Source: Anolis carolinensis
Lineage: Eukaryota
Direction of reading: 5' to 3'
DNA length: 64,000 nt
Assembly (NCBI RefSeq): GCF_035594765.1
Contig: NC_085841.1
Coordinates: forward strand, 319,309,402-319,373,401
Shown here: in pieces, positions 17,121 to 56,182 of the stretch
Numbering within the stretch: position 1 is the first letter of the stretch
Layout of the letters: every line of letters starts with the position of its first letter
Program-made: the position numbers and the translations under genes
Notes under the pieces: generated by a model
What the model was told of the DNA's origin: nothing
Databases searched by the model: none
The model's input: only the letters and a program-made list of their open reading frames with translations

Positions 17121-18017
17121 TGTTAGGTTCCAGCCAGCCAGGGCACCAAGGCCTGCAGTGTTTCGGGACCTGCACTTTGACAAAGATAATGATGAGGAAT
17201 TTACTGACATTGCACCCTCCACAGAGGGGCCTTTACAGCTGCAGATGCCTGAAGATGTTGACGCTGGAGATTTGTTAATTGGAGAGGATTCTTCTAGTCC
17301 TCCCTCACAGATAAAGCCAGATGTGGAAGAAATACCTGAGAACAGGGTTTTTAATCGTAGGGATTTTGTGACTAGAGAAAGAAGTGCAAAACAGGAAATT
17401 CGCTGCAGCCAGAAACTGGCAAATAGATGGGATAATGGGTAGCGTTTCCCTTGGGAAAGTTTTGGGAGTTTGTACTCTCCAAATTCTGAACAGCTCAGAA
17501 TCTGTTAAAAGTGTTTTGTTTGGTGGATTTCCTTGTGGTGTCAACGATGCTTTTTGGAAAAAGGTTTCTCAGTTTCTAGCTCCTGTTTCTAAGCCAAGTT
17601 TCCCAGTTCCAGTCGGGCCATGCTGTGCCGCGACTCTCGAGTAGACCTTGCTTTTATTTTGGATGGTATTCCTTGTTCCTGTTCCAAGTTTGCCTCAGCT
17701 TTAACAACTTTGCTGCCTTGATTGCTAAGAAGCATTTCCAGTGGATAGAACTCTGTTTTCTGCCAGCCTTGTTTCCCTGTTTAACTTCATGGACTTTGAT
17801 TTCTTGGGATAGCTATCAATTTCTCATTGTGGATTATAATATCATACCTTTTCCTTCAGACAATTGAAACCGTTATTGACTTTCTGAAAAGAACTATTCC
17901 TTACTCAGACTCTATACCTAATTTCTTTTGGATTGATAATTGTTTTAATAAAGATATAGTGTGTTATATTGGCTCTTGTCTGGTTTTCGTGTGATCACAC
18001 TGCTTTGGGGTGCAACA
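17121..18017 (+). mobile_element. Gypsy-type solo LTR (older copy) with a frame-2 ORF at 17122-17442
   Basis: TGTT...AACA termini; AATAAAGATAT polyA signal near 17947 as in the other LTRs; decayed TSD CTTCT/TTTGT; ORF ends FNRR-x13-RCSQKLA. Confidence 0.8.
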
Positions 18018-19868: not shown

Positions 19869-21547
19869 TAGGCTTGTCCGATCGATGGAAAAAATGTTTC
19901 AATTCTCGTTTCTAAAGTAGGGGGTGCCGGCTCTTCGATATAGAAATTATTTCTTAATTTTTCACCCAAAATTTTCGGATATTTCCGAAAATTCGTAATG
20001 TTTCTAAAATGTTTCTAAAATGGCGGACGCGCATGCGCAATCGCCAAAAAACAGGAAACCGGGGGTGACTTTTCTGGGGGTCTCCCGCCCTCATTTCTTG
20101 AGCTATTCTCATCAAATTTGGTACAGTGGGAGAACACATTCCACACTCTTTGCTCAACAAATTGCAGAATGTTTCCTGTCTCCTATGATTTTTGGCAAAT
20201 TTTCATAACTTTTTATAATACACTATTTTTCAATATTTGAAGAAACCTGTTCCTGGTTTGAAAGTCTTATTTCCTGTTCAATTGGGTTCTTATCACTGTA
20301 AAAGTCCCTCTTCTACTTGTGTAGACTTTGGATTAGAAATGCAGCACACGCCAAGCAATGCCTTGACAGGATTGGCAACGTCCCTTGGAAACTATAAATT
20401 GCTGTGGACCCTCTATTGAATCAAATCAATGTCTGACTTTGTGATTGCAGAAATAAAACTCAGCCCAAGGCTTGGGAATAGAAATGGAGCGTGAGGGAAG
20501 CAATGCCTTGACGGGTGCCCCACGTCCTTTGGAAACTATTTCTTCCAATGTACCCTTTAGGTTTGAAAACAATGTGTGTCTTTGTGATTGCTGCAATAAC
20601 ACTCAGCCCGGGGACTTGGGATTACAAATGGAGCGGGAGGGAAGCAATGCACTTGCAGGAATGCAGACGTCCGTTGGAAACTATTTCTTCCAATGTACCC
20701 TTTAGGTTTGAAAACAATGTGTGTCTTTGTGATTGCTGCAATAACACTCAGCCCGGGGGCTGGGATTACAAATGGAGCGGGAGGGAAGCAATGCACTTGC
20801 AGGAACGCAGACGTCCTTTGGAAACTATTATTTTCAAGTTCCCCCCCTTTCAGGATTGCAAAGAAGGGCTGATGTGGTGATTGCTAAATTCCAAAAAAGA
20901 AAACAGAAAGGCAAAAGGTCTCCCTCAGGAGTAGATGGAAAGCACCCCAAGCTCAGCACTAGCAGGGACGCAGACGTCCTTTGGAAAAAAAAGTTCCCTA
21001 AAGCCAGCCATAGCAAGGACTCTGCCCCAAGCCCCCAGCCAATTTTCCCCCCAAAAAACACAATATCGAACCAGCAACAACAGAAACACTCTACCTCTCT
21101 CCCCCAAACAAGCAAGCAGCAGCTTCCCAGTGCGTGCCAAACACCCTCTCTCCTCGGTATCCCAACCCAGAATGGCTTGGGTCGGCTGTGGTTGGGGATT
21201 TTTATAGAGATCCTCCACATGGACACGGAGGACGCTAGCCCCCACATTTGGCAGCCATCGTGGAAGACTCTGATTGGCCAGGGAGCGGCCATGTTAGGCT
21301 GCGCTAGGCTTCCATTCATGTTAGGTTGCAGAAACAAAAAATAAAAAAATAAAAAATAACTTTTAAAAAATATTAAAAAAAAATTTGGAAGGAAAAAAAT
21401 TAACGAAAATTTTAAGAAACAATTAGAGAATGGGCCAACGATGGTTCAAATTACATTGCCAGTTGCACCCAGGGAAAACGTTTCAATACTCGTTTCAAAA
21501 AACGAGAACAATCCGAAATAATTACGAAACGAGAAACATAACGAATA
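19869..21547. mobile_element. Non-autonomous hAT-like (TAGG) element with an internal ~144-bp tandem array; right TIR not visible
   Basis: Begins TAGGCTTGTCCGATC; subterminal CGAAA/TTTCG repeats at both ends; flanks ATAATTAT / TTAATTAT resemble an 8-bp TSD. Confidence 0.65.
20337..20830 (+). repeat. ~144-bp tandem repeat (about 3.5 units)
   Basis: AAATGGAGCG(G/T)GAGGGAAGCAATGC...TTGGAAACTA recurs at ~20337, 20482, 20626, 20770. Confidence 0.9.
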
Positions 21548-31847: not shown

Positions 31848-33055
31848 TCCATAATAAAAGCGAAAACCCGTATGTGTGTATGTGGTACGGATGTCTGTTC
31901 ACACAGACAGCTTCCAGCCTCCACAAGCAGGCTATAGTTCCCAGGGTTAAGAATCCAGCAAGTCACTCTTTTCCACTGACATTGCGGTTACAGCGAGCGC
32001 CATGAACATGCAGCCCAGCCCCTGCCAATGTCCTTCCCAAACACTACAGCCCACCACCCAAGGAATGCTTTCGTTTGTGGACCATTTCATCCTAGATTTT
32101 GCTTTTTCTTCCACCACAGGCAGGCATCCCAGGGTTCTCCATTGCTGTGGAATTTGCACGGCCACGCCCACTGCCCTTTTCTTTCCAATCTCTCTGCATA
32201 AGAAACAGAGCAGAACTGAGCTGCAACTAAACTTACTGGAGGAGTTTAGGGATTGACTCCACATGGTGGAAGTTGTAGTTCACCCTGCATCAAGTCAGAG
32301 CACTGTCACTCCTACTGGGGAATATAGAGGAGTTGTAGTTCACCTACACCCAGAACGCTATGAACCCAAACAATGACTGCTCTCGGCCAAACTTGCCATG
32401 CAGACCTGATATGCCCAGATTTGACTACTGGTGGGTTTGGAGGGGAACTGGACTGGAAGTTGAGGAGTAGTAGGTACTGGGATTTATAGTTCACCTGCAA
32501 TGAATGAGCATCACACTTGGCACACAGAGCCCCCATAACCAATACAACATATTGGACATGTTTGGGAAAAAGGGAGTTATAGTTCACCTGCAGCCAGATA
32601 AACACTGACCCTCACCGACAATGCACTAGGACCACACTTCACACAGAGAAGCCTCATGACCTACTGAACATACTCCGGGTATTTGTGGGAAGGGGCCTTG
32701 ATTTTGGGAGTTGTAGTTCACCTCCATCCAAAGACCACTGAACCCATCCAATGACGAATCTAGACCAAACTTGGCACACAGACTGAATATTGCCTGCTGT
32801 GGATACTGATAGATATTTCGGGGCAATTGCACCGGGAATCTGGAAGTTGCCGTAGTTCACCCCCATCCAGAGAGTACTGCACCACACCTGGAGCACACGC
32901 CCAAAATGGCCAACTTATAATACTGGCAAGGTTTGGGGAGGATTCAGCCATGATTCTGGGAATTGTAGTTCACCCACTCCAAACAGAATACAAACATTAA
33001 AAGACAAATAATACCATTCTCAAATGACCTGGGCACCGCAGGGTCCCCAAGCTAG
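31848..33055 (+). mobile_element. Non-autonomous Helitron #1
   Basis: 5' TCCATAATAAAAG; 3' hairpin CCTGGGCACCGCAGG followed by CCAAGCTAG|T; no TSD. Confidence 0.8.
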
Positions 33056-34251
33056 TATATAATAAAAGTCAGTGTTTGTATGTATGTTTGTGGGTATGTT
33101 TCTGCGTATGTTTGCATGTGGCAACTTTCTGATTGGCCGCCACTTTCACAGGCAACTGCGACCACCAGGAATGACAGACCTGGCCCAAACTTGGCACACT
33201 TAACCCCCATGATGCACTTTATGGCCTGGTGCCGTTTGGGGGACGATGGACCACGGATTATAGGATTTGCAGCACTTTCAATTGCTTTGCCTTCCACAGA
33301 CCACTGCGATGCCCACCAGTGATGGAACTGGACCAAACTTGGCAGACAGGACCCACATCACCCACTTTACACCATGTTGCAGTTTGGGGGAGGGTGGACC
33401 ACAGATGATGGGATTGCAGTACCTTCACTCACTTCCTGAGACCACTGCAACTGGCAGGAATGAGAAAACTGAACCAAACTTAGCACACTTATCCCAAATG
33501 ACACACTTTACACACTGCAGCAGTTTGGGGGAGGATGGACCAAGGATTATGGAATTTGCAGTACTTCCAAACACTTCCTCTCTCACAGACCACTGTTACT
33601 CTATCCAATGACGAATCAGGACCACACTTGGCACATATATCACCCATGACCCATTTTAAGTCCTGGTGTGGTTTTGGGGAGGACATACCAAGGATAAGGG
33701 GACTTGGAGTACCTTCACTCACTTCCTGAGACCACTGCAACTGCCACAAATGACTGATCAAGACCAAACCTGGCACACAGAGCCGCAATGACCCACTCTA
33801 TACCCTGGGTTGATTTGGAGGATTCTGGACCATGGAGGATGGGACTTGCAATACCGTCACTCACTTCCAGAGACCACTGCAATTCCCACCAGTAACGAAT
33901 CAGTACCAAACTCAGCACACAGAACCCTCATGACCCACTTTACATCCTGGTGCAGTTTGGAAGAGTTTGGACCATGGATGATGGGACTCGCAGTATCTTC
34001 ACTAATTTCCTGAGAGCACTGTGACCCCCAACAATGACTGATCAACACCAAATTTGGCATATTGAGCCCCCATGACTCATTCTACATCCTGACGCTGTTT
34101 GGAGGGAGATGGACCATGGATAACGGGACTTACCTATGGAAGCAGAAGTTCACCTGCACCCACTGCACCCAGCTGACATTTGATATAGACTAAACACAGC
34201 CAAAAAATGCCTTTCTTTAATAACCCGGGCACCACCGGGTCCCCAAGCTAG
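33056..34251 (+). mobile_element. Non-autonomous Helitron #2, head-to-tail with #1
   Basis: 5' TATATAATAAAAG; 3' hairpin CCCGGGCACCACCGGG followed by CCAAGCTAG|T. Confidence 0.85.
33150..34130 (+). repeat. ~141-148-bp tandem array (7 units) inside Helitron #2
   Basis: CCAAACTTGGCACAC-like anchor at ~33190, 33338, 33479, 33627, 33769, 33911, 34053. Confidence 0.9.
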
Positions 34252-36893: not shown

Positions 36894-37858
36894 TGTGATG
36901 ACTCATGGGCCATGTAGTCCCGTTCCTAACGCTGTTGTGACAGATGAAGAGGAAAACTTGGGGTTTCCACCATTTCAGCCAGAATTGGAACTTTCCCAGC
37001 CTGAATTGGAGCCCTTGCACCTGCAAGAGGTTTGCCTTCCAGAAATCTGCCAAACAAGCCCTGAGTCAGAATCTCCCCCATTTTCTCGCCGTAGTTATTA
37101 TCAACAACAAAAAGGAGTTCAGCAGGCTAATCGCAGAAGCCTGAGAATCGCAGCCAGGCATTCGGCTGATTAAGACTGCTTCCATGAGAAATTCTAGGGA
37201 GTCATGCATCTGGACACAGAGATTGACTTTCGGTTCTGATTCCCCAGAGAAGTGTTCTTTGGTGGGAAAACGAGACCCTATTTAGGTTCCTTGCCCCGAA
37301 GGAATCTTGCGGAGTCAATTCGTCAGCTACTGGAGTAGGTTGTGTGTGGACAGCGCTACTCCCGTTTCCAAGCCTCGTTCCTGTTTCCAAGCCTTCGTTC
37401 ACGTTCCCAGCCTTGTTTGCTTCACGGACCTTGCCTTGTTTCCTAGGACTCAGCCTTGCCTTCCAGGACCTTGCCTTGCTTCCCGGACCTTGCCAAGTAT
37501 TTACCACGGATCTTGTCCCTGTTCCTCGTTCCTTGTTGCCTTGAATCAAGCTTTGTGTACCAAGAATCAAGCTATTTCCTTGCCTTGCCTAAGTTTCATG
37601 GATTAAAGGACCTTGTCATCTCCCCTCACCTTGCTTGGCAAAGTGAGTGTTTCGGTTACTGGATTACAACTTTGGACCTTACTATTTCATATTGGACATT
37701 GTTTTCCTGGACTATATTTGACCTTTCCTGAAAGGACATCTTCTGAACTATATTCTACACTTATTTTTATTGCCTTTACTTATTTCCTTAATAAAGATAT
37801 TAGATAGATTCTGGCCTCTGTGTATGGTTATTGGTGCTCTGCAGCCTGGGTCGTGACA
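36894..37858 (+). mobile_element. Gypsy/chromovirus solo LTR with a frame-2 ORF at 36895-37173
   Basis: TGTGA...TGACA termini; perfect 5-bp TSD GTGCC; AATAAAGATATTAGA; homologous to the 3' LTR at 40265-41125. Confidence 0.95.
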
Positions 37859-39732
37859 GTGCCTTCAAGAAAACTGCAAATGTTATCAATTTAAAAGGAA
37901 TTTAAGAAATCCTTTCTCAGGTTATCTTGTTTATTCAGTTTTAAATTTAGCTTTTATTTTAGAGCAGCAGGACATCCAAGGCAACCCTGCATGATTAAAT
38001 GGCACTGCTATTGACCTCTGATACAGCATGTTGGCTCTTTCTGGCTGGATGCACAAAACCTTGTGGAGTCTTTTTTCTTAGTTTCTTAATGTACACTATA
38101 TATTTTTTAAACTCCCTTTGGAGCTTTCCTTCATATTTGTGACTTTCTTGTGAAATGCCTCATTTTCTTCAGTGCAATCTTATATATTACTTAAATTCAG
38201 ATCTTCTTAGGACCTCTTCACATTGAGGTCCCCAATCCGGGCAATAGTGGGGGGATTTGCTACAGATTATGGTGAAACCAGTGGGGCCTGGGGAGGTGTG
38301 GGGAACCCATCACCCCACGCACATCTCCAATACACATCAAGAATGATACAGTTCTTTAAAAATGTCCCAGGATAATCCAGGCTCTGTCAAAAATGTGCTG
38401 CAGCTGATCCCTGTATATCCCAGATCTGGGGCAAAATTGGCTCTGCGAAATGTGAAGTGCATTGTAGAAACTCACCCCTGCTGAAGTCAGGGAAAGATCC
38501 CAAACAGAGGTTGCCAAAAATGCCCCAAGGACATGACTGGGCTGCAGGGGGTCAGTTGGCCACCTGGGGGCACAATTGATTGTTTCCTCCTCTACTGGTC
38601 ATTTTCCACTACACCACACAGGCTCTCTGTATAAGAGGAAAAGTCTGAAAGTGACTATAAGGCCTAAATGACTTAGACCATCACTTAGAACCATGTTGAA
38701 GGAAATAATCTGCTTAGATGTAAAGAATGGAGCAATTTCCTATGATTTCAAGTTAAGTTCAATGTGTACAGAACATTCTGAGTAGATTCCAGAACATCTT
38801 CACAGCTAGAACACAGGAAAATGATACAAAGAACCAATGTGATGTAGATATTTTGTGAACAATGTGTGAAATTACAAGTATAATCTGCTCAATTGCTGCC
38901 ACTGTAAATTTAGATAAGAATTCTATGCAAAATTAATGTAATTGCTCATTTGGAATATTAATCAATCTGTTTTGGGGGTACACTACTATCTCTCACTACC
39001 TCAGTGGGCTATTTGTGTTGAGAAATGACAAGGGCCAAAGAAGATCAATACTTGGTCCAGCAAGCCCAGGGACCTGATTTTAGACTCGAATGTCCTCCTA
39101 TATCAACCTACCTGTCATTTCAGATCTTCGGTGGAGGCATCACCCTGACAGATTCTAAAGATAAATTCTTGCCAGTGTTGTTTTAAGCAGTTATGACATC
39201 ATAAAAGAGACACAGGATATCATAACTGTTGAATTTATTGTACTAAATGGTTGAGTATGACTCCTCAAACCTCCGAAGCATAGCAGAACCCTAACCAAAT
39301 CGTTTCCCAGGTGCTGAAGGTCAGGGAATTGGAAAACGATGTTTGATGTGCACTCCCAGTTATGGGGCACTGTAGGGTTTCTCAAGTTGCCAGGTGCAGA
39401 GGACAGGAGCAGGGGGAATGCACAAAACTGATAATTTGTACATAAGGTGTTATATGTTTCATTAATTTATATTTCTTCTTTGCTGCCACCAATTAATATT
39501 CAGGTTTCTTTAGCTGTCACCATTTTATTACACCTCCGCCATTTCCTCTGTCAGGATTTTATACTGACAGGCCACCTCTTTGTTGGGATGTTCAGGAAGA
39601 CACACAAACTCTTTAGATGAAGTAAAACAAGAACATAATGTTTATTTATATTGGAACAGTAAAAATGTGTTGTGGTTTTAATAAAAAATTAGGCTTTACT
39701 CTTACAAGGAATGGTTTTATAACTTGAATTCT

Positions 39733-41125
39733 TGTAATGCCTCATGGGCCTTGTAGTCCTGCTCCCAGTGCCACCGTGGCTGATGAAGATGAAAACATGG
39801 GGTTTTCGCCGGCTCAGCAAGAGTCGAAATTTTTCCAGATGCCGGAAGTTAGATGCCTGCTTCATTGGTCCCTACCCGGTGGTGACGCAACTTAACCCTG
39901 TGACTTTCAAACTCCAACTTCCACGTTCCATGCACATTCATCCGGTGTTCCACCGTTCCCTCCTCCTTCCGGCGGATGGTGTGCGCCCAGATGTGAGCCG
40001 GCCACCCCCTGCCCCTGCATTGGTGGACGGGGAAGAGGAATTTGAGGTCCAGGACATTTTGGATTCTCGCCTTCATCGCCGCCACCTCCAGTATTTGATT
40101 GATTGGGTGGGTTATGGACCGGAAGAACGCTCCTGGGAAGACGCTTCCACAGTCCATGCCCCTGACTTAGTTCGACGCTTCCACCGGACTTACCCTTCCA
40201 AGCCGCGCCCCCGCGGATCTCGGGGGACGGCCCTGAATGAGGGGGGCCTTGGGAGGGAGGATAGTGTAATGCCTCATGGGCCTTGTAGTCCTGCTCCCAG
40301 TGCCACCGTGGCTGATGAAGATGAAAACATGGGGGTTTCGCCGGCTCAGCAAGAGTCGAAATTTTTCCAGATGCCTGATGTTGATGTTTTTGCCCAAGAA
40401 CCCATTAAAACAGACCTTGAGCAGTTCTCACCTCCTTTTGCTAGGAGACAGTCCTATGCTGCGAGCAGGGGAGAGAAGGAGCAGGTTCGGAGGAGTTTGA
40501 GACTTGCAGCTAAACAAGAAACAATTAGCCATGTTCCCCTGGGAAAATCTAGGGAGTCTCACATCTGGAGAGAGCTGTGTTTCGTTTCCTGTTCCCTAGG
40601 GAAAGGGAGCGCTGGACACCTGCTTTGCAGGAAAACGAGACCTAGTTAAATGTGCCTGGCACGGTAGGTTCCGTGCGGAGTCAACAGAGCAGCTTCAGGA
40701 GTGATTTCGTGTTTCCAGCCTAGTGTGGACTTCGCAAAGTCCGCAAACCCAGTCTCCTTGCTTTGCCTATCCAAGTATTCAAGAATTGCCTTGCCTTGTT
40801 CCTAGTCACGGACCTTGTTCCTAGAATCAAGTTTGTTTCCAGCCTTGTTGTGGATTTACCTTGGACCTTGTAAGATCTGGACATTTCCCCACAGTATTGC
40901 TTGGCAATAGTGTGTGTTTCTGTTTGTTGGATTCTACTTTGAACTCTAATATCATTTATTGGACAAAACATTTCTGGACTATATTTGACCTCACTTGATA
41001 GGTCTGCTTCTGGACCATATTTTCTACTTGTTTTTATTATTCTTATATATTTCCTTAATAAAGATATTAGATAGTTATTGGCCTCTGTGTTTGGTCCTTA
41101 GTGCTCCGTTGCCTTGGGCGTGACA
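39733..41125 (+). mobile_element. Internally deleted chromodomain-containing Ty3/Gypsy LTR retrotransposon
   Basis: TSD ATTCT on both sides; 5' LTR stub 39733-39843 (110/111 identical to the 3' LTR start); integrase 3' end; PPT-like GGGAGGGAGGATAG; full 3' LTR 40265-41125. Confidence 0.96.
39844..40649 (+). pseudogene. Gypsy integrase C-terminus (GPY/F motif + chromodomain) reading into the 3' LTR
   Basis: KLDACFIGPYPV...HPVFHRSLL; chromodomain EFEVQDILDSR...YLIDWVGYGPEERSWE; no stop before the LTR. Confidence 0.93.
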
Positions 41126-44100
41126 ATTCTGTAGAGATATGTTCCTTCATAGAAGAGTACAGTTCAGGTTTATGAAACCCTTTTAAAAACCTTTTCTCCT
41201 GTTGCTTGACACCAGCACTCTAAACTATAGAGTCTCAATATAGTTCTTAGCCCTTCTTCACTGTCACTTTGGCTCCGCCCATCTCTAGTTGCTAAGCAAC
41301 TCCCTCCATTTACATCAGCCAATAAGACTGCACTTCCAGTAATGGCTGCTTTATCGCTCCTCCCCCTTGCTCTGCTTAGCTTTTGCAAGCAAGGCCTGAA
41401 GCTACCTGTACACCAACCTTGTAAGGTAGGCTAATCTGTTACACCAGGTATCAAGGCAGCCAACAATTGGTGACATTTTGCAGATATTATTTCCTAATGA
41501 TTCAGAAACTCTTTGGCTAGGGTCTTGCCAGGTTGGGCAGATAGGCTTCGGGGGCATCATCAGTCATCTATTATTGTAGCTCCGTTTTTCTAGTTACAAC
41601 TGTGATGCAAGATCTCAGCCTATATTATGAATTTAGTAAAAACAAAATCTCCCCTTATGATATGTCCAGCATTACATCCCTGACTCTAGAACAAGCTAAA
41701 GGGACTCTCAGCCAAAAAATGCCAATCATCCACAAGACACAGCAATTGAAATACCCTGTGATGGATAACATTAAAAAAAGTGACAGGCATAGCTAAGGGG
41801 GATAGAATAAAAAGATGTCATATGTAGAAGGACTTGGTTTTACCAGCAGACAGATAATAGAAAGCAAAAGAAAACAAAGAAGAAAGAAATAAGTAATGGT
41901 TGAATTCATTAGTTTTGGTGGTTCCAAACCATGCTTTGGGAAGAGAGAAAACTATAATGGAGTCTCCTGGATCCACTTTTTCAGGAAACAAAATAATTTC
42001 TTTTAAAAAGGAAAAGGTAGGAGGGGGCTCATGAATTTCAAAGAAGAGCTCATGAATGTGCAAATGTGCCTGTCAAGCACAGATAGCAGATACGCCTTCT
42101 TAGCCACCAGTCTGCATAATGCACTTGGACACAGTCGCTCCAGTGGTAATAAATGAACTTCAGTCCTTGTCCGAAATGTTTGATCAGGAAACAGCAGTCA
42201 CAGCTGTGCCAAATTTAATTGCTTGAAAGTAAAAAAAAAAAAGGCTATGAAGATATTAAGAGAAGTGTATCCGCTCTCAGAGAGGATTTGAAATCAAAGG
42301 AAAGCACAGGGCAAATAACCCAAGAGCAAACCCACTTTGGGGGATTTGTTACCAGGAGACAATGAGAATAACTGCCAACTCTCATTCCACTTCAACTTTA
42401 ACTGCCTCGGTGACATTATATGGAATCCTGGGACATGTAGTTTGTGGAAGTCTCAGCCAGAGAATTCTAGTGCCTCACCACACTATAAAACCTAGAATTC
42501 TATGTGATAGACAAAGTAGAGTTATAGTATTATAATTGCATAGTGTCAAAGGGTCTTGATTCTCAGCCTCACTGATCTGTTCAAAAGTCTCTGGAGAAAT
42601 AAAAGGAGGAAAGTAAACTGGAAATGAGCAGCAGCAGGACAGGACTGGCCGAAGACATTTTGGTGCCTAAGGTGCAGCTACAGAGCTCCCCTCCTCTGTC
42701 CAAACACCCAAATGTATGTAGTAACTAATGCCTGTTGAGTTATTTTGACATATAAGGCATTTCCCCCCACAAATCCCATTGTTGTAACTAACAGTACAAT
42801 AAGAATAACTGAAATAACCACATAACTGTTAGATTTTCAGGAACCTCCCCCCCCCCCCCCCAAAAAAAAAAAATGTTTTCTCTGAGATAGTTGCTTCAGT
42901 CTGTCTTTTAGTAAGACTGTCTCTGGATAGAGGGAAAATGTATGCATGATCAAAAGAGATTAAGGCTGGAGTAGAATGATTTTAAAGACAATTAAAAATC
43001 ATGACAAATTGATTAAACAGGGTTACAGTCATGTGCTTTAATGGGCAGCATGTACTCTTTAGATGAGGACAGTGAATCCCGAGTGCTGCCCAAAATGAAA
43101 ATCGAAGCACATGATTTGAATTGTATGTGTGTAATGAATGCCAATTGAATTAAATCAGTCTTAATTCAACGCTTTACTCACCCAGAGAATCCTAGGGAGA
43201 ATAGTTAGAGCCTGCACTCAATGAAGTTTTCCATACAGATCTAAACCAATGAGCTTCTAGCCCACCTCACACTATATTAAAGTGTGGCCATTCAAATTAG
43301 TGTCTTTTGGTCTGCCAGGACATGCACAGACAATGTGATTCCAATTATCAGAACTGATATTGTGTTGGAAAAAGACTCTACTAAATTTATTTTAAACAAT
43401 TGTGTAAAGGACCAGGGTGTTATTTCCTCCAAGGGTCCTTCAACACTGGCCAATAATACAGGACCAATATGGCATTCTGTATGCCGGATTGGCCCTGCAT
43501 AGCAGCCCAGTTGGGACTCCCCAAACTGTCTCTCTAATCTGGCTGATCTAGGGGTGCTTCCACACAGGGCTTAAACTTGCTTCAGAGCGGGTTTAAATCC
43601 CCACAGGTACCCAAAAGAAATGGACTTTCCCGGGGGTAGTTACTGTGCTGGAACTGGGCCATCTTAACCCCCTCCCCAGAGCCTTAAAATAAAATAAAAA
43701 CTTGCCGGGTCACCATGAGGCTGGCACATCATTTTAAAAAACCAGGAGGGCTGCCGGAGCAGCTTCATGGTGACCCAACAAGTTTTTATTTTATTTTAAG
43801 GCTTGGGGGGGGGGGGGAGGTTAGGTTGCCTCTTTGCTTCTCCAGGCTCATGGAGCCCTAAGACGTAAATTGGGCTGTGGAGAAAGACTTGTGGGACCGC
43901 AGAAGCAGTCCCCGGTGTCTGGCTCCACAGGACCCCTACCTTTCAGGAAGGCCCGGATCTAATGGGTATCTAATTAATTCGATATAAAACAGGCTTTTCC
44001 TGCTTTGTCGTATGAACGCCTCCAGTAAATGTTCAACAGGGTCTGCATTTTGGGCCCTGTCTGGAAGGCCCCTAAAATACCAGGAGAGGACTGACTGGCT

Positions 44101-45690
44101 AGACAGTATAGCAGTAAATGTTTTCTTGAAGGAGGCTGAGGTTCAAGATATTGTAAATAATGTTATCTTTGTAGAGTTATCCTTTGATCCCTTAATTTCT
44201 TGGGTTTATCAAAATTATTTAAAACAGGAGAATAACTGCAAATTAAAACAATGGTAATTGAAAATTAATGGGATCTTGAGCATACACTCTTTAACATATA
44301 TGCATACATATAAAAAGGCATAAGGTAGCAAAAATCTGATTACATGTGTAGTCTGCTGGAAGATTCATGGCCAAGGAATTCATTCCTTTGGAGACAAAAT
44401 AAAATATAGACATCCTAGTGAAAAGTACTGATGAGCTCTGTGTGTGCGGACAAAGTGGACAGGGTTGTTTCTCATATCTGGTTTAGAAAATTCTTCTGTG
44501 ATATGTATTTCACTACTAGAAAAATCAATGAATGCTTCTGTTACGATTATAAGGGTATTGATGCGTTAGAGAGCTTGTTCTTTTGATGGAAGCACAGAAC
44601 CTTCTTACATGAGACGTACATCAAACAAACCACTGCACACAGAGGATCACAGTACCTACCAGTACATTGGATGTCACATTTGAAAGATGAGTGAAGCCTC
44701 ATGTGCTATTTTTAATTCACTCTGTCATCTGAGATTCCTTTAAGTTGCTCTTCTTACATCTTGAAGTGGGAGGAAGCGGGAAGCAGGGGAGAAAGAAAAA
44801 AGGAGCCCTTTTTTTCCAAAGAGAATTTGAAAGAAAAAAGTTTTAGTTACATTTAATCCAAGACAGAAAGCAATGTTTCAAAATCATTCAGTTACCTGCA
44901 ACAAGATATGTGTGGAGGTTGCCTTAAATAATGACTGTGGAGAATCAGTGTGATATAACAATATGAGTGTTTGACAGGAGAGGATCTTCATTGACATATA
45001 TCCCATCTATACTGGACTTTTAAGCATCTTTTCCCCAGTCTGAAACCAGAAGTAGCACACATTTGGGACTTCACACAACACACACACACAAATCTCCAAT
45101 CTCCATGGTAGTCTTCTTTCCAAAGTGCTGCTCCATGGCTTTGGTATGTTTGTAAATAGCACAATAACGTGGTGAAGATGGAAAGCACATGGTTTCCTCC
45201 AATGATCAGCATCAAGTGTTGTAGTAGAGCCAGTAAAGTAATGTTGCAAGCAGTAGTATGAGTACCAGAAGGGGGGAAAGGGCTACTCGCGAGCAGGAGT
45301 CAGATGAAGAACAGCAAAAGAAAAGGATCCGGGATATACTTATGGCACCTACTGATGAAGACACATTTGAAGGGTTTTCAAGTGGCAAAGAGTCAATGAG
45401 CGATGAAGGAGATGTGGTGGATGGGAATAGAGGCACAAAGAGGGTTACTCGGGAGCAGGAATCAGATGAAGAATGGGAGAGGAAGAAGATCAGGGATATA
45501 CTTACTGCTCCCACAGATGATGAGTCGTTTATGGGTTTCTCTGGGAATGATGGGTTTGGGAGTGATGAGGATGGGGAGAACACAATGGATTGGACTAAGG
45601 TACAAGAGATAAGGGATATATGTGCAGAGCCAACCTCTAGTGTCACGTTTGTGGGGTTTTCGGGACATGAGGATTGGCAAAGGGGAGATA

Positions 45691-45794
45691 GGGTTGTTGT
45701 ATGTCTTTCGGGCTGTGTGGCCATGTTCCAGAAGTATTCTCTCCTGACGTTTCGCCCACATCTATGGCAGGCATCCTCAGAGGTTGTGAGGTAT
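45691..45794 (-). mobile_element. Penelope pseudo-LTR fragment
   Basis: Same family as the 14759 arms; perfect 9-bp TSD GGGGAGATA (45682-45690 / 45795-45803). Confidence 0.92.
45743..45783 (-). ncRNA. Minimal type I hammerhead ribozyme motif (Penelope-associated), core intact
   Basis: Minus strand reads CCU-CUGAGGA-U-GCCUGC-CAUAGAU-GUGGGC-GAAAC-GUC-AGG: core boxes, helix II, helix I and a GUC cleavage triplet. Confidence 0.75.
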
Positions 45795-48700
45795 GGGGAG
45801 ATACATCAGAATCATGGGAAAGCCTAAGTCTTGACAAGAGATGGAGGAACTGGAGGAATGGAAACAGGGGTTCACATGTGAAGACGACAGCTGTAAGAGA
45901 TGATGATGGGGTGGAGGCCAGCTCATCATCAGATGATGATGTGTAAGTTAAAAGTAGACTCTGAAATGGGGAATTTTTGCAGAAGGCAAAGTGTCAGTTA
46001 CATGTCGTGTGTATTTGTCGCTGCCTGTTCTCGTGTTGGGTTTTGGGTCCGGGTTCTGCAGCCTGGAGTTCGTGTTACCTGTGGATCTTCGACTTGGACT
46101 GATTTCTTGTGAGTGTGGCTTTCTCCCTCTCTGGATTGTGGACTGACTTGATGACAACTTTGTTTGACAGACTTGGAAACGACATATCCTTTGGCTTCTT
46201 TGGCAATGACTCTTGGACTACGGCTGGCTTTGGCAACTCCTTTTTGCAGTTAACTCTTTGGGGGGCAGTGCTGTTTGTTGGAACTCTTTGTATACAGTGC
46301 TGCTTGTTTGCTGGTTTGCTGTTTTTTAATCTGTTTTTTCCTCCTGTTTAATCCGGATTATTTTCCGTTTGCCTTTTGGAGCCCAGTTTGGGTAAATTCT
46401 TTAAGTTTTGGCCAGAGACACTGAAGCTAAGTGTATCTGAGCTTTTATTTGTTTCTGCAATAAACCTTTTGTTGGACTAAATAGCGTGTGTGGCTCTTTA
46501 AGGCCTCTGTGTCTCGACACCAGGATTCATATTTATCTCAGTATTAATTAGAACTGAATTTTTATTTAGGCTTAATGTGAACATTGGCCCACAAATATCT
46601 GTTAAGATTGTTTGCACATAAATCACTAAAAACTGCTGTCTAGAGAAAATGAAGATTAGAGGGAATCATTTCAGATTATATCACGGGCATTTATACTGGA
46701 ATTGATTGTTGTTGTGAAAATGAGTACATTGTTTATTTTGACTGGGGAACATTTATTAAGAATATCAAATAAAGTTTAATAATATGGTTTTTTGTGAAAG
46801 AAAAATAATTCTAAATTCAAAATGTGCTGGTTCCTCGGCAAACTACAAATCCCAAAGTTTCATAGCATTAAACCACATCAGTTAAAGGGATATTAAACTG
46901 CATTAATTCTACAATGTAGATGCATCCATAGATGGCCCTTGCAATCCCTTTCATAATGCTATGGTTCTATTGATATAGGTAATGTAGGTATTTCCTTCAT
47001 TCTTGTCTCATAACACACCAGAGATTCATTTTCTCCTTCATCAAATTGCTTATGTGTTAGTATTTCACTGTGCATTGATTTGCCAAGCTTACAAAGTTGT
47101 TGTTGGAAAATGCTTTGTTTTCATACTCAGTAGAACCCCAAGAAAGTCCAAAGTCCCACCAATGAAATTTCTCCTGGGATATTATTACAATGAAGTGGAA
47201 TGATACCTGCTGGGCATTGCCCTGATTTACAGTGCTTTAGTGAATAAAAAAAACTCCTCTTTCAGAATCCACTGCTGCTGCTTTGTAAAGGTCAGTGTGT
47301 ATTGGGTGGTGATTTAAATCAATACTTTTGATTGTTGTTGCTTCGGCATTAAACAGTGGTGAAACTATATATGAAAGGGAATGTTAGGCTCTCTCAAAAA
47401 TAGATCTGCCCTCAGAAATATAACAAAGGGAGAAAATGGATGAACAAATGGATGTGGCTGTTTTAGAAAGGTTCCAAAGGAAGTAATTACAAGTCTTTGC
47501 ATGCCTTCAAAAACAACAGTGTCACCAGCTTGAAAATCTTGAACCTCAATTGAACACCTACAGCATAGATAGAGGGAATATGTGGATGTTTTGTGCCAGA
47601 AAAATACCTCGCTTTTCAATTGGTAGCAGCAAAATGGACAACTCAGCAGCTACTGTGTTATCTTTCCTAGCAAGTGAATTTGCCGTCATACAAGTATTTC
47701 TTGGCTGACAACAATATTATTGCAAATCTTTCTCTACATCTGAGCATTAACCTCCCTTATACGTTCACCAAATTGCTGCACTTTTTGTTTGATGACACAG
47801 AAAAATAACACTTCCCAAAAGCACAACACCAGATGGTAATTACATTCTAATAATAGAACAAAATAGTGAGATCGCCTCCTATTTTTTTGTGCTTTAAATT
47901 GATGAGACGGCAGAAAGGCAGTCACTTGGTAACTATGGTAAAAGGAATGGGACTGGGATAAAGAGCCATCCACCAGTTTAGAAACAAATAAACAAGTGGC
48001 AGGATGGCATTTGAGGCATGATTCGCAAGTGATACTACTGGATATACTGGGATTTTTTTTTTTGAACAAGCAGCTACACAGGGCAGGTTCACACATGCAT
48101 GGCAATGTCTGGTGGGGAAAAGATCTTGTATGAGTGCTTGAATTACAACTTTCAAAAAACAACATTATTCTTGGGTATTATTTATGTGAAAGCAGGAAGC
48201 CTTACACAAATATAAAGTTATTTCACACCACTGAGGAAATAGAAGGCCAGCATAACCATGACCCTGTAGAGAAATCTTGCAGATCAACATATCAATATGT
48301 GATTGCCTTTAGATTTGTAATGTTTCTTTTATATGGATGTGAGGCATTGAATCTTTGCCTTTTATTATGTTGTGAACTGCTTTGAGTTTCCCTAGGGATG
48401 AGAAAAGCGTTATATAAATGAAATAAATAAACAAATAAAATAACAGAACCCTCTACAATTCCTGGTCTATTCTGCTAATAGGCACCAACCATTTGAGCAA
48501 GCAGGATATAAATAGACTGCTTGATAGTAGCAAAATTGCTTTTTCATAAAGTACTTATGTTCAGCTAATTAGTAGTTCAGCGTTTATTAACTTCAATATT
48601 TCCTCCATTGTAGCATAACTACTTATTTTCTTTTAGGTAAATTGTAGTTATTACATGAACACAAACCAGTGCTTATATCATAAGATTCTGCTTGGCCTCA

Positions 48701-53257: not shown

Positions 53258-53390
53258 NNNNNNNNNNNNNNNNNNNNNNNNNNNNNNNNNNNNNNNNNNN
53301 NNNNNNNNNNNNNNNNNNNNNNNNNNNNNNNNNNNNNNNNNNNNNNNNNNNNNNNNNNNNNNNNNNNNNNNNNNNNNNNNNNNNNNNNNN
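53258..53390. other. Assembly gap (133 N)
   Basis: Run of N. Confidence 1.
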
Positions 53391-53443: not shown

Positions 53444-55233
53444 TTTAAAAAATATATTTTTATTGAGAATTCTTTATTACAAATATATAAAAACAAAGAG
53501 TTGGGTAAGGGGTAGTGAAGGGAGTTTGGGGTATTGAGAGAAGGGGCAGGTGTAGAAGGGGTATGAAAGGGGAAAGGGGGCTAGGGGGTGGAGGGAAAGG
53601 TGGGGGGATGAGTAGGGGGGAGGGAGGGTTAAGAGATTAAAAAAAATATTGTGTTGGACTTCCACTTCTCTTCCGGGAAGGGGGGGGGGTAATGTCTCGA
53701 GTTCTAATTCCTCTTCTTATTTTGTCCTCATTCATTTCTTCAGCAGTTTTCCCCGCATCTTCCTTCTGTTTTCTTGTTGATGTATGGGTGTGTTCTGGAA
53801 CCTTTTTTTCCCCTTATTATTCTCCTCTTTTTTTCCATTTTATTTTCCCAGTTTTTCCTCCGTTAAGAATCTCTCTAATTGTTTACAGTCAGTTTCTTTC
53901 CTTGATTTTCCCTGGTGTTTAGCAATTAGAAATGTTAGCCTGTCCATGTTCTTAATTTCTGAGATTTTAATTAACCATTCCTCTTTAGTAGGGATTTCTT
54001 TCTGTCTCCAGTGTTTGGCGTAGATTATCCTGGCTGCAGTTGTAAAATAAGTCATTAATTTTTCCTCATTTAATTCCCTAGTATTTTTAACAATTCCCAA
54101 TAGATAAATTTCCAGTAATTTAATAAACTTGTGTTCCAATATTTTCTGGACATTGTCATGTATCATAGACCAGAATTCTTTAGCCTTTTTGCACTTCCAC
54201 CAAATATGATTGTAAGAGCCTTCCTCTTCTCCACATTTCCAACATTTTAAGTAGCTACTTTTCTTAATAATACTTAACTTTTTAGGAGTTATATACCATC
54301 TATAGAAAACCTTCATCCAATTTTCTTTTAATTGATAGGCATATGTAAATTTAAGTCTTCTCCCCCAGCATGCTTCCCATTCATCCACATGAATTGCTCT
54401 ACCTATATCCTTGGACCATTTTACCATACAATGTTTTACTAGTTCCGTTTCTGTATTCCACTCTAATAAGATCTTATAAATCTTAGATATTGCTCTACCT
54501 TCAGTAAATAAGACTCTATCCCATAGATTATTTTTATCCATAAAACCCACTGTCTTATCTTTCTTGAACTGATCTCTTAGTTGGCCATACTGTAGCCATG
54601 TCATATTTGTAAATCTTTCCTTTAATTCCGATTGTAATTTTAATGTGTAATCTGAGTAATGTTTCTTTATTAAGTCTTCGTATTTAGGCCATTGGGTCCA
54701 GCCCAGTAGCCTTCTTTGTGTAGCCTCGAGAGGGGATAGCCATTGCGGGGTTTTGTTGTAAAGTCTATTCTTATACTTATTCCATGTTTTTATAAGGGCC
54801 GATCTAACAAAGTGGTTTGCAATTTTTTTCCCCCTGATTTTATTTTATCATACCAGCCGTATGAGTGCCAACCTACACGTAGGTCAAAGCCCTCTACCGT
54901 AAGAATTTTCCTGTTTTTAATTTGTAGCCAATCCTTAATCCATATCAAATTACATGCTTCATAGTAGGTTTTGAGGTCTGGCATGGCGAAGCCTCCCCTT
55001 TTCTTATCGTCAATTAGATTTTTCATTTTTATACAGGGTTTTTTCCCTAACCAAATGAAATTACTTAAATCTTTGTTCCAAGTTATAAATTTTTTTCTGG
55101 TTTCTCAATATAGGTAGACACTGAAATAGGTATAACATTTTGGGGAGGACGTTCATTTTTATAGCTGATATTCTGCCCCATAATGATATTTTTAATTTTT
55201 TCCAATTCTTGAGCTCGGCTTTTATGTCATTCT
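53444..55233 (-). mobile_element. 5'-truncated L1-clade LINE
   Basis: ORF2 C-terminus with a CCHC knuckle (KCWKCGEEEGSYNHIWWKC) and GGFAMPDLKTYYEA; ~23-bp TSD ATTTTCAACACCTT(A/G)TGGGTTTT at 53421 and 55234; TTTT/AA target site. Confidence 0.92.
53840..54604 (-). pseudogene. L1 ORF2 C-terminal fragment
   Basis: 254-aa ORF with CCHC knuckle; upstream ORF2 sequence is frameshifted (54790-55026). Confidence 0.88.
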
Positions 55234-55318: not shown

Positions 55319-56182
55319 TGTAGTGTCTCAGAGACCTCCGAGTCATGACCCCGTCGCCATTACGGAGCAGACTGAAGAAGAGATGGGGTTTCTGCCATTT
55401 CCGCACGATTTCGCTCCTTTCCGGATGTCCCCTGTTGACAGTTTTAGCCCACAGTTCATAAAAAAGGGCCTTGGCTCACAGCCCGGTTCTCCAGAGAATG
55501 CTGGGTTTGACCGCAAGTTGTTTTGGGAGGCTTCGCGCGCGGAAAAACAGATTTTGAGAAGGAGCGCTCGTTTAGCGGAGAAAGCAAGCGTTAATTAAGC
55601 CAGTTCCCTTGAGAGTTCTCAGGGAGGATTGCAGCTGGCAAAGTTGTTGACTTTAGCCATTTTCCCTTGGGAAAGAGTTCAGACACCTGGCTGGGGAGGA
55701 GAGCTAAGTCCCATAAAAGTTCTGGGCACCAACTGGATGATGCGGTGTTCAACGTGTCAGTTGAGGAATTCACATCGACTCTAGTTCTGCAGTGCGCTAC
55801 TCTCGAGTAGACCGGCGTTGCATCTCGTCTCCCTGTCAAGCCTGGACAGCGATTCAGCTTTACCACGACTAACTTTGCCTTGCCTTGCATCCTAGCCTCG
55901 GATTCGAGCCCTGGAACTCTTGACAGATCTTGCCTTAATCCCCACTCAAACAGCCTAAGGTTTGAGTGTGTTTCGGTTATTGGATTTAAAACTTTGAACT
56001 CTAATACTGGACATCTACTTTCATATTACTGGACTATATTTGACCTTTCCTGAAAGGTCTACTGCTGGACTATATACTCTGCTTATTTTTAGTTGTCTCC
56101 TTTATTTCCTTAATAAAGATATTAGACTGTTTATTGGCCTTCGTGTCTGATTCCCAGTGCTCACGATGCCTGAGGTGTCACA
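55319..56182 (+). mobile_element. Gypsy/chromovirus-type solo LTR with a frame-2 ORF at 55320-55598
   Basis: TGTAG...TCACA termini; perfect TSD ATGTG; GGACTATATTTGACCT and AATAAAGATATTAGA shared with the LTRs at 36894 and 40265. Confidence 0.95.

Follow-up and report, generated by a model that had tools for sequence, protein, structure and literature searches.

Can the coding part of a retrotransposon extend into its own long terminal repeat (LTR), and if so, what does the additional protein sequence do? This question is raised by a short Gypsy element of Anolis carolinensis (assembly GCF_035594765.1, contig NC_085841.1, forward-strand positions 319,309,402 to 319,373,401; this whole analysed stretch of 64,000 nucleotides is called the window here). 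The first-pass annotation of the window had noticed that the integrase frame contains no stop after the chromodomain and continues through the polypurine tract (PPT) into U3, where it encodes a motif resembling the nucleosome-binding core of HMGN proteins. The element (39733-41125) is an internally deleted, self-priming chromovirus of the Tf1/sushi type, a label given by its features, the trees comprising fetched relatives only. It consists of a 111-base stub of the 5' LTR, the end of a Gypsy integrase, the PPT, and a complete 861-bp 3' LTR (Table 1), and the joint between stub and integrase is a 4-base microhomology. The Pol frame is open from 39738 to 40649, running from the SH3/GPY module and the chromodomain over the PPT into the LTR, which starts at 40265. 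In the window copy it is free of stops from the chromodomain up to LTR codon 127, as had been described. However, the listed open reading frame is not integrase throughout, because its first ~35 codons are 5' LTR sequence joined by the internal deletion. In addition, its end at 40649 does not represent the end of the family's tail: a private frameshift lies a few codons past the motif. Among the 65 copies with an open motif, 60 stop 29-30 codons past its phenylalanine. The chromodomain has aromatic residues at all three cage positions and is thus of the group I type, read against the definition in the accessible part of PMC3605345. The tail itself is composed of an acidic part of ~57 proline/serine-rich residues, which is predicted to be disordered with a net charge of about -10, and a basic part of ~30 residues C-terminal to it. 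Among named proteins the closest are those of Anolis carolinensis, with up to 98% identity to a related copy, and they include the tail uncommented.

Table 1. Positions in the window of the chromovirus element, of the related LTRs, and of the second Gypsy clade.
Feature	Position	Strand	Remarks
TSD, left copy (ATTCT)	39728..39732	+	right copy 41126-41130
5' LTR stub	39733..39843	+	97% identity with 3' LTR bases 1-121; junction placed against full-length copy L196
Integrase C-terminal SH3/GPY module	39846..39968	+	Pfam PF24626, E 1e-11
Chromodomain	40041..40187	+	Pfam PF00385, E 2e-10
Polypurine tract	40251..40264	+	translated in Pol frame
3' LTR, 861 bp	40265..41125	+	TG...CA
U3-coded integrase tail	40266..40517	+	acidic part, then basic part
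F-x-R-[RK]-x13-RRSxR[LI]A motif	40437..40508	+	HMGN-like core RRSLRLA at 40488-40508
Out-of-frame extension	40518..40649	+	private to window copy; after frameshift; outside the family's protein
TATA-like box	40643-40651	+
Self-priming site	40675-40684	+	complementary to PBS of full-length copies; covaries with PBS, four variants
AATAAA polyadenylation signal	41057..41062	+
Solo LTR, family C	17121..18017	+	TSD imperfect; tail open 106 codons; decayed motif at 17350
Solo LTR, same clade	36894..37858	+	TSD GTGCC; tail open 92 codons; motif at 37081
Solo LTR, family B	55319..56182	+	TSD ATGTG; tail open 92 codons; motif at 55506
LTR, second Gypsy clade without chromodomain	45217..46519	+	short repeat inserted at ~45691-45795
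Helix-acidic-FxGF units in U3 of second clade	45306-45395, 45468-45557, about 45597-45662	+

Pol is open through the PPT, U3, and the motif in 65 of 79 distinct chromodomain-linked copies, which were picked by similarity and are therefore biased towards intact copies. Of the remaining 14, one stays open with a changed motif, and 13 are interrupted by a stop, a shift, or a truncation. Full-length elements encode gag and a Pol frame of ~1260-1360 codons, which reaches 85-97 codons into the 3' LTR. Their LTR pairs are 95-100% identical, and copies with identical LTRs are part of the read-through set. Thus, intact elements do not stop before the LTR, which confirms the read-through proposed for them. 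The copies have hallmarks of chromoviruses, namely a chromodomain after GPY at the integrase C-terminus, paired TG...CA LTRs, a PPT, a 5-bp TSD, gag, and pol, and their UniRef relatives contain the Pfam families of reverse transcriptase, RNase H, integrase, and chromodomain. Chromodomain and tail are also in phase in three of four integrase-linked copies of family B, in which the junctions were located by pairing matches, and integrase and tail form one chain in the UniRef records of the 36894 type (P0196/P0197). Family C is represented by six copies with internal sequence, whose Pol belongs to the same clade. An intact PPT-LTR junction of family C was not present in 14 flanks and six PBS-linked copies, one of which has a chromodomain and is cut off directly after it; read-through in this family is inferred. 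Three PPT-plus-LTR patterns gave no matches. A second chromovirus lineage of the same genome, with 240-bp LTRs, is tail-less, its Pol stopping at the PPT/LTR junction (L147, L148, L152). Changes in the G-run of the PPT let single copies of this lineage read ~20 codons into the LTR, and such a change is a possible route to the origin of a tail.

The tail is under purifying selection at the protein level. In 472 pairs from 37 two-LTR elements, considering only sites where the two LTRs of an element agree, pN/pS of the tail is 0.36 in the Pol frame versus 1.06 and 1.28 in the other frames. In the non-coding LTR it is flat with 0.79-0.85 in all frames. Third-position divergence in the tail is 0.34, compared with 0.17-0.20 at the other positions, and is flat downstream. 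Between branches (30 elements), pN/pS is 0.35-0.72 for the whole tail, 0.05-0.34 for the eight motif codons, 0.05-0.13 for the integrase core, and about 1 (0.64-1.30) for the linker plus PPT. An indel-frame test on pairwise DNA alignments is suggestive only, with 50% of the gaps in frame in the tail and 15% downstream. Aligning 190 copies by an upstream anchor, so that the motif positions were left free, revealed lysine at the three motif arginines in none, none, and two of the copies, versus 72 and 119 copies at the neighbouring basic sites. The motif serine is kept in 185 copies, the fourth core position is L, A, or Q, and an additional arginine 10 residues past the motif phenylalanine is conserved in 179. 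Most deviations from the motif are CpG decay. It might be argued that the open frame and the motif are just a by-product of promoter constraint on the DNA, or of a chance loss of stops, given that the region lies within U3, that the serine codon is always AGY, and that the post-insertion controls are noisy rather than cleanly neutral (pN/pS of 0.47 for differences between 5' and 3' LTRs, and 0.48 and 0.99 for singletons of families B and C). However, the synonymous sites of the motif are saturated in six branch comparisons, the three arginines switch between CGN and AGR codons, tail lengths vary by whole codons, and pN/pS is low in the Pol frame only. A by-product of DNA-level constraint is already contradicted by these selection and codon data and is hardly conceivable, and the protein-level constraint suspected in the first-pass annotation holds.

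In full-length copies the PBS behind the 5' LTR does not match a tRNA; its partner is an LTR site ~25-30 bases past the TATA-like box, so that the PBS is complementary to the transcript's 5' end. PBS and priming site change together in four variants, and the PBS of family C, predicted from its LTR, was then found in six copies (control: none). Self-priming is a mark of the Tf1/sushi group according to the available sections of PMC6317226. The transcript likely starts near 40675, so that the tail is located upstream of the start and would be translatable only from the 3' end of the full-length RNA. The likely U3/R border, at 40643-40684, is downstream of the tail. The tail is an extension of Pol, because no start codon is common to families A, B, and C, and families B and C do not have an ATG at the LTR start. 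An independent U3 reading frame was considered and ruled out, as there is an ATG in family A only and U3 is upstream of the promoter.

The full motif pattern has four matches in the window and none in 100 local shuffles. The four LTRs concerned all have the motif in frame from LTR base 2, and the frames of about 90-105 codons noted earlier for the three solo LTRs agree with the lengths measured (Table 1). That the motif is common to all four is correct for the pattern, but the RCSQKLA of the LTR at 17121 is a decayed copy from a family with mostly RRSQRLA. The LTRs had also been regarded as divergent families. Instead, they belong to one clade (clade 1 in the following), their integrase cores being 82-98% identical to one reference copy, although the tail DNA of its main branches is only ~46-67% identical. 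Because families A, B, and C are a single clade (monophyletic with support 98/94 in the tree of fetched relatives), the motif has arisen once here, and its four occurrences are homologous and not independent. At synonymous sites the tail has diverged more than the integrase core, and tail and core also differ in their relationships, which points to rapid evolution or exchange of U3. It is common for the elements to be inserted within one another, either in the LTRs or in internal parts (L162, L164, L052, L200, L206, L272).

Concerning the function of the tail, its resemblance to known nucleosome binders suggests that the RRSxR[LI]A motif is an HMGN-type arginine anchor to the acidic patch of H2A-H2B, a reading to which we assign a probability of roughly 60%. 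The core RRSxR with its three arginines and the serine, followed by L or I, is HMGN-like, and this likeness, which had been pointed out before, is real in that the motif matches the contact residues determined by cryo-EM. In the accessible part of that study (PMC12487698), R363, R364, S365, and R367 of Dsup (RRSSRLTS) and R23 and R26 of HMGN2 touch the acidic patch, and phosphorylation of the serine is modelled as repulsive. The R, R, S, and R conserved in the lizard motif are the Dsup contact residues, and both leave the fourth position unconstrained. Yeast Dot5, whose RRSARIAT is nearly the same as the lizard RRSARIAA, requires the three arginines for nucleosome binding (PMC13347269, from the text available), and a loop of APC3 binds the acidic patch by the same arginines (PMC11910654, likewise). 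As far as these sources go, HMGN and its mimics share with the lizard sequences the RRSxR[LI] core, the three arginines and the serine, and the disordered context. They differ in that the lizard motif is found at the C-terminus of a retrotransposon integrase, with additional conserved residues upstream (F, R[RK], an aromatic residue, and R). However, RRSxR[LI] is short and has 58 matches in 100 shuffled windows, and sequence likeness alone is therefore weak evidence. Searches with the clade 1 tail gave no useful match in Pfam, the protein atlas, or the PDB. A predicted complex of the window peptide with the H2A/H2B of this genome scored 0.02 (mark 0.34), a value that weighs on neither side; AlphaFold 3 also fails on HMGN2 and the nucleosome, according to the same partly available study (PMC12487698). 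At 85 target sites a 10-bp periodicity is absent (p 0.35, at low power). These insertion sites have a weak symmetric bias, with an excess of A/T at TSD positions 2 and 4 and three bases beyond the TSD, and a deficit four bases beyond it.

An AlphaFold2 model, of low confidence with a mean pLDDT of 55 and a misfolded chromodomain, places one helix over the whole motif, unlike Dsup, whose bound form is a short segment lying across H2A helix 2. It could thus be possible that the C-terminal 30 residues make up an arginine-striped helix binding DNA or RNA, be it target DNA, nucleosomal DNA, or the RNA of the element, with the acidic part as autoinhibitory region or spacer. The helix is predicted over residues 146-174, the conserved basic positions 4, 11, 18, 22, and 26 would share one of its faces, and the exact spacing is retained in all branches. 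Given the low confidence of the model, and given that phosphate binding generally tolerates lysine for arginine and that the match to the HMGN contact residues would have to be a coincidence, we regard a nucleic-acid-binding helix as rather unlikely. The exclusion of lysine at three positions also bears on the idea that the two basic clusters F..R[RK]-x13-RRSxR are a bipartite-like nuclear localization signal importing the integration complex, as the C-terminal signal of Ty1 integrase does. The clusters are at the extreme end of the integrase with fixed spacing, and the ends of other squamate relatives are basic clusters of different sequence. However, classical importin-alpha signals prefer lysine, and a localization signal would leave the invariant S, L/I, and A unexplained, so that this function seems unlikely, too. 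Finally, as a short linear motif within a disordered tail, the sequence might dock on another protein of the host or the element, for example a kinase, a phosphatase, a chaperone, Gag, or the chromodomain itself. The context of the serine, which we take to be Aurora/PKC-like, and the recruitment of a protein as apparent strategy of the second clade described below would fit; the family, structure, and atlas searches did not result in any partner match, and we consider docking on such a partner highly improbable.

This other clade (clade 2) is represented in the window by the LTR at 45217-46519. It is high-copy and monophyletic (100/100), and its integrase is ~45-50% identical to that of clade 1. 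In 16 of 20 integrase-linked copies the frame continues from GPY, in this case without a chromodomain, over the PPT junction into U3. An FxGF motif is present in 13 of these 16 read-through copies, and a sub-lineage of three copies, including L273 and L276, has the helix and the acidic stretch only. The tails have one to three units each (loci L259-L280), and when the FxGF positions were left free, 58 units contained F, G, and F in 54, 53, and 54 cases. HIV integrase, whose choice of insertion sites is guided by the host protein LEDGF, binds to LEDGF via its folded core; it is the same LEDGF domain to which the short motifs of other proteins bind. Such LEDGF/HRP2-binding motifs (TIMs, for example of JPO2 and MLL1) are defined in the available part of PMC9987994 by a helix, an acidic linker of eight residues, and FxGF. 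The clade 2 tail has these elements, namely an amphipathic helix, an acidic linker within the range of 8-16 residues, and FxGF. It differs from the published motifs in being U3-coded on a retrotransposon integrase and in having up to three repeats. The best match of a profile of 11 units to 177,635 PDB sequences is the M1 motif of JPO2 in complex with LEDGF (6EMO, E 5e-4), and the KMT2A (MLL1) motif in 2MSR follows at lower rank (E 0.47). Thus, the clade 2 motif likely recruits LEDGF/HRP2, judged by its sequence. Two clades with motifs of host chromatin tethers at the same spot raise the odds that both are targeting modules. That U3 is a cassette for integrase tails mimicking host chromatin tethers, of the HMGN type in clade 1 and, by convergence, with up to three JPO2-like LEDGF/HRP2 motifs in clade 2, has in our view an even chance of being correct.

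By crossing the PPT into U3, the Pol frame of clade 1 adds a selected tail behind the chromodomain. If the motif is an arginine anchor, this tail would be translated from full-length RNA, whose 3' end holds U3, and would stay on the mature integrase. While the chromodomain would read methylated H3 tails, the flexible tail could dock on the same or a neighbouring nucleosome, and the combination would result in a multivalent, sequence-independent capture of chromatin. The upstream F, R[RK], aromatic residue, and middle R might add further contacts, and phosphorylation of the invariant serine could release the anchor, as modelled for S24 of HMGN2. Reverse transcription copies U3 in one piece, and the tails could therefore be a swappable, fast-evolving targeting module, with which the LEDGF/HRP2-type tail of clade 2 is consistent.

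Parts of this arrangement are known from other systems. With the Tf1/sushi group (V-clade of GyDB with Sushi-ichi and Amn) the lizard elements share the Gypsy Pol order, GPY and chromodomain at the end of the integrase, and, according to the accessible part of PMC6317226, the 5-bp TSD and a self-priming PBS instead of a tRNA site. They differ in that Pol runs 85-106 codons into U3, encoding a selected acidic-then-basic tail; the available sections on Sushi LTR models do not mention a coding U3 (PMC3601003). Pol frames that run on into the 3' LTR and bear a targeting motif have been described in plants, for CRM group A and for some chromoviruses of beet (PMC3059260 and PMC3605345, in the parts at hand). 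In CRM group A, likened here by description, the CR motif replaces the chromodomain, while clade 1 keeps the chromodomain and adds the tail. CRM group A is primed by tRNA-Met and clusters at centromeres, whereas clade 1 is self-primed and dispersed, its copies being distributed along chromosome C1 from 1.7 to 365 Mb without clustering. For Arabidopsis Tal1, an R/K change in the C-terminal region of the integrase is described as switching targeting in the excerpt of PMC11735389. The arginine anchors of KSHV LANA, CMV IE1, and foamy virus Gag would, like the lizard motif, tether a mobile genome to nucleosomes, but they are on those proteins and not on an integrase, and have other sequences. In the available part of the respective review (PMC9040877), these three comprise the acidic-patch anchors so far and integrases none, and the foamy virus intasome does not use such an anchor. 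In the full-text literature outside most subscription journals, Repbase reports, and supplements, with FxGF covered more thinly, we found neither a retrotransposon integrase with an HMGN-like motif or FxGF nor U3-coded tails in reptile Gypsy elements. To our knowledge, little work has addressed how vertebrate Gypsy elements choose their insertion sites. Provided that the motifs act as their sequences suggest, clade 1 would have an integrase with its own acidic-patch anchor, and LEDGF/HRP2 would be used by a non-lentiviral element. In addition, vertebrate solo LTRs can hold coding sequence of chromatin-binding motifs in hundreds of copies, and host genes could capture these as exons. In the Anolis gene model LOC107983085 isoform X2 (P0081), upstream sequence is joined to the whole LTR tail including RRSARIAA, which may reflect capture of the motif as an exon or else an artefact of annotation.

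Outside this genome, RRSxR[LI] is present in one of 140 related chromodomain proteins from other sources, which has a short tail and its nearest named relatives in frogs. The junction recurs in one amphisbaenian and two vipers, whose tails are acidic with a basic end that lacks RRSxR[LI]. Fish chromovirus integrases (P0050, P0084, P0202, P0203, and others) have RPRGRPRR past the chromodomain, presumably an AT-hook-like sequence, and often a short REPSP-type end; these ends are a third kind of C-terminal add-on. As a measure of the microchromosome share, among the matches listed, counted by eye, contigs other than C1-C6, which hold ~15% of the bases, contain 11 of 144 for family A, 13 of 150 for family B, 31 of 150 for family C, and 7 of 150 for clade 2. 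By these contig counts alone, there is no sign of a preference of clade 2 for gene-dense chromosomes. The rest of the window includes a run of 133 N at 53258-53390, short duplicated units in the ORF translations of 20512-20883 and 33052-33797, and fragments on the minus strand at 53840-55104 with frames of 334 and 104 codons, which we assume to resemble the end of a LINE ORF2.
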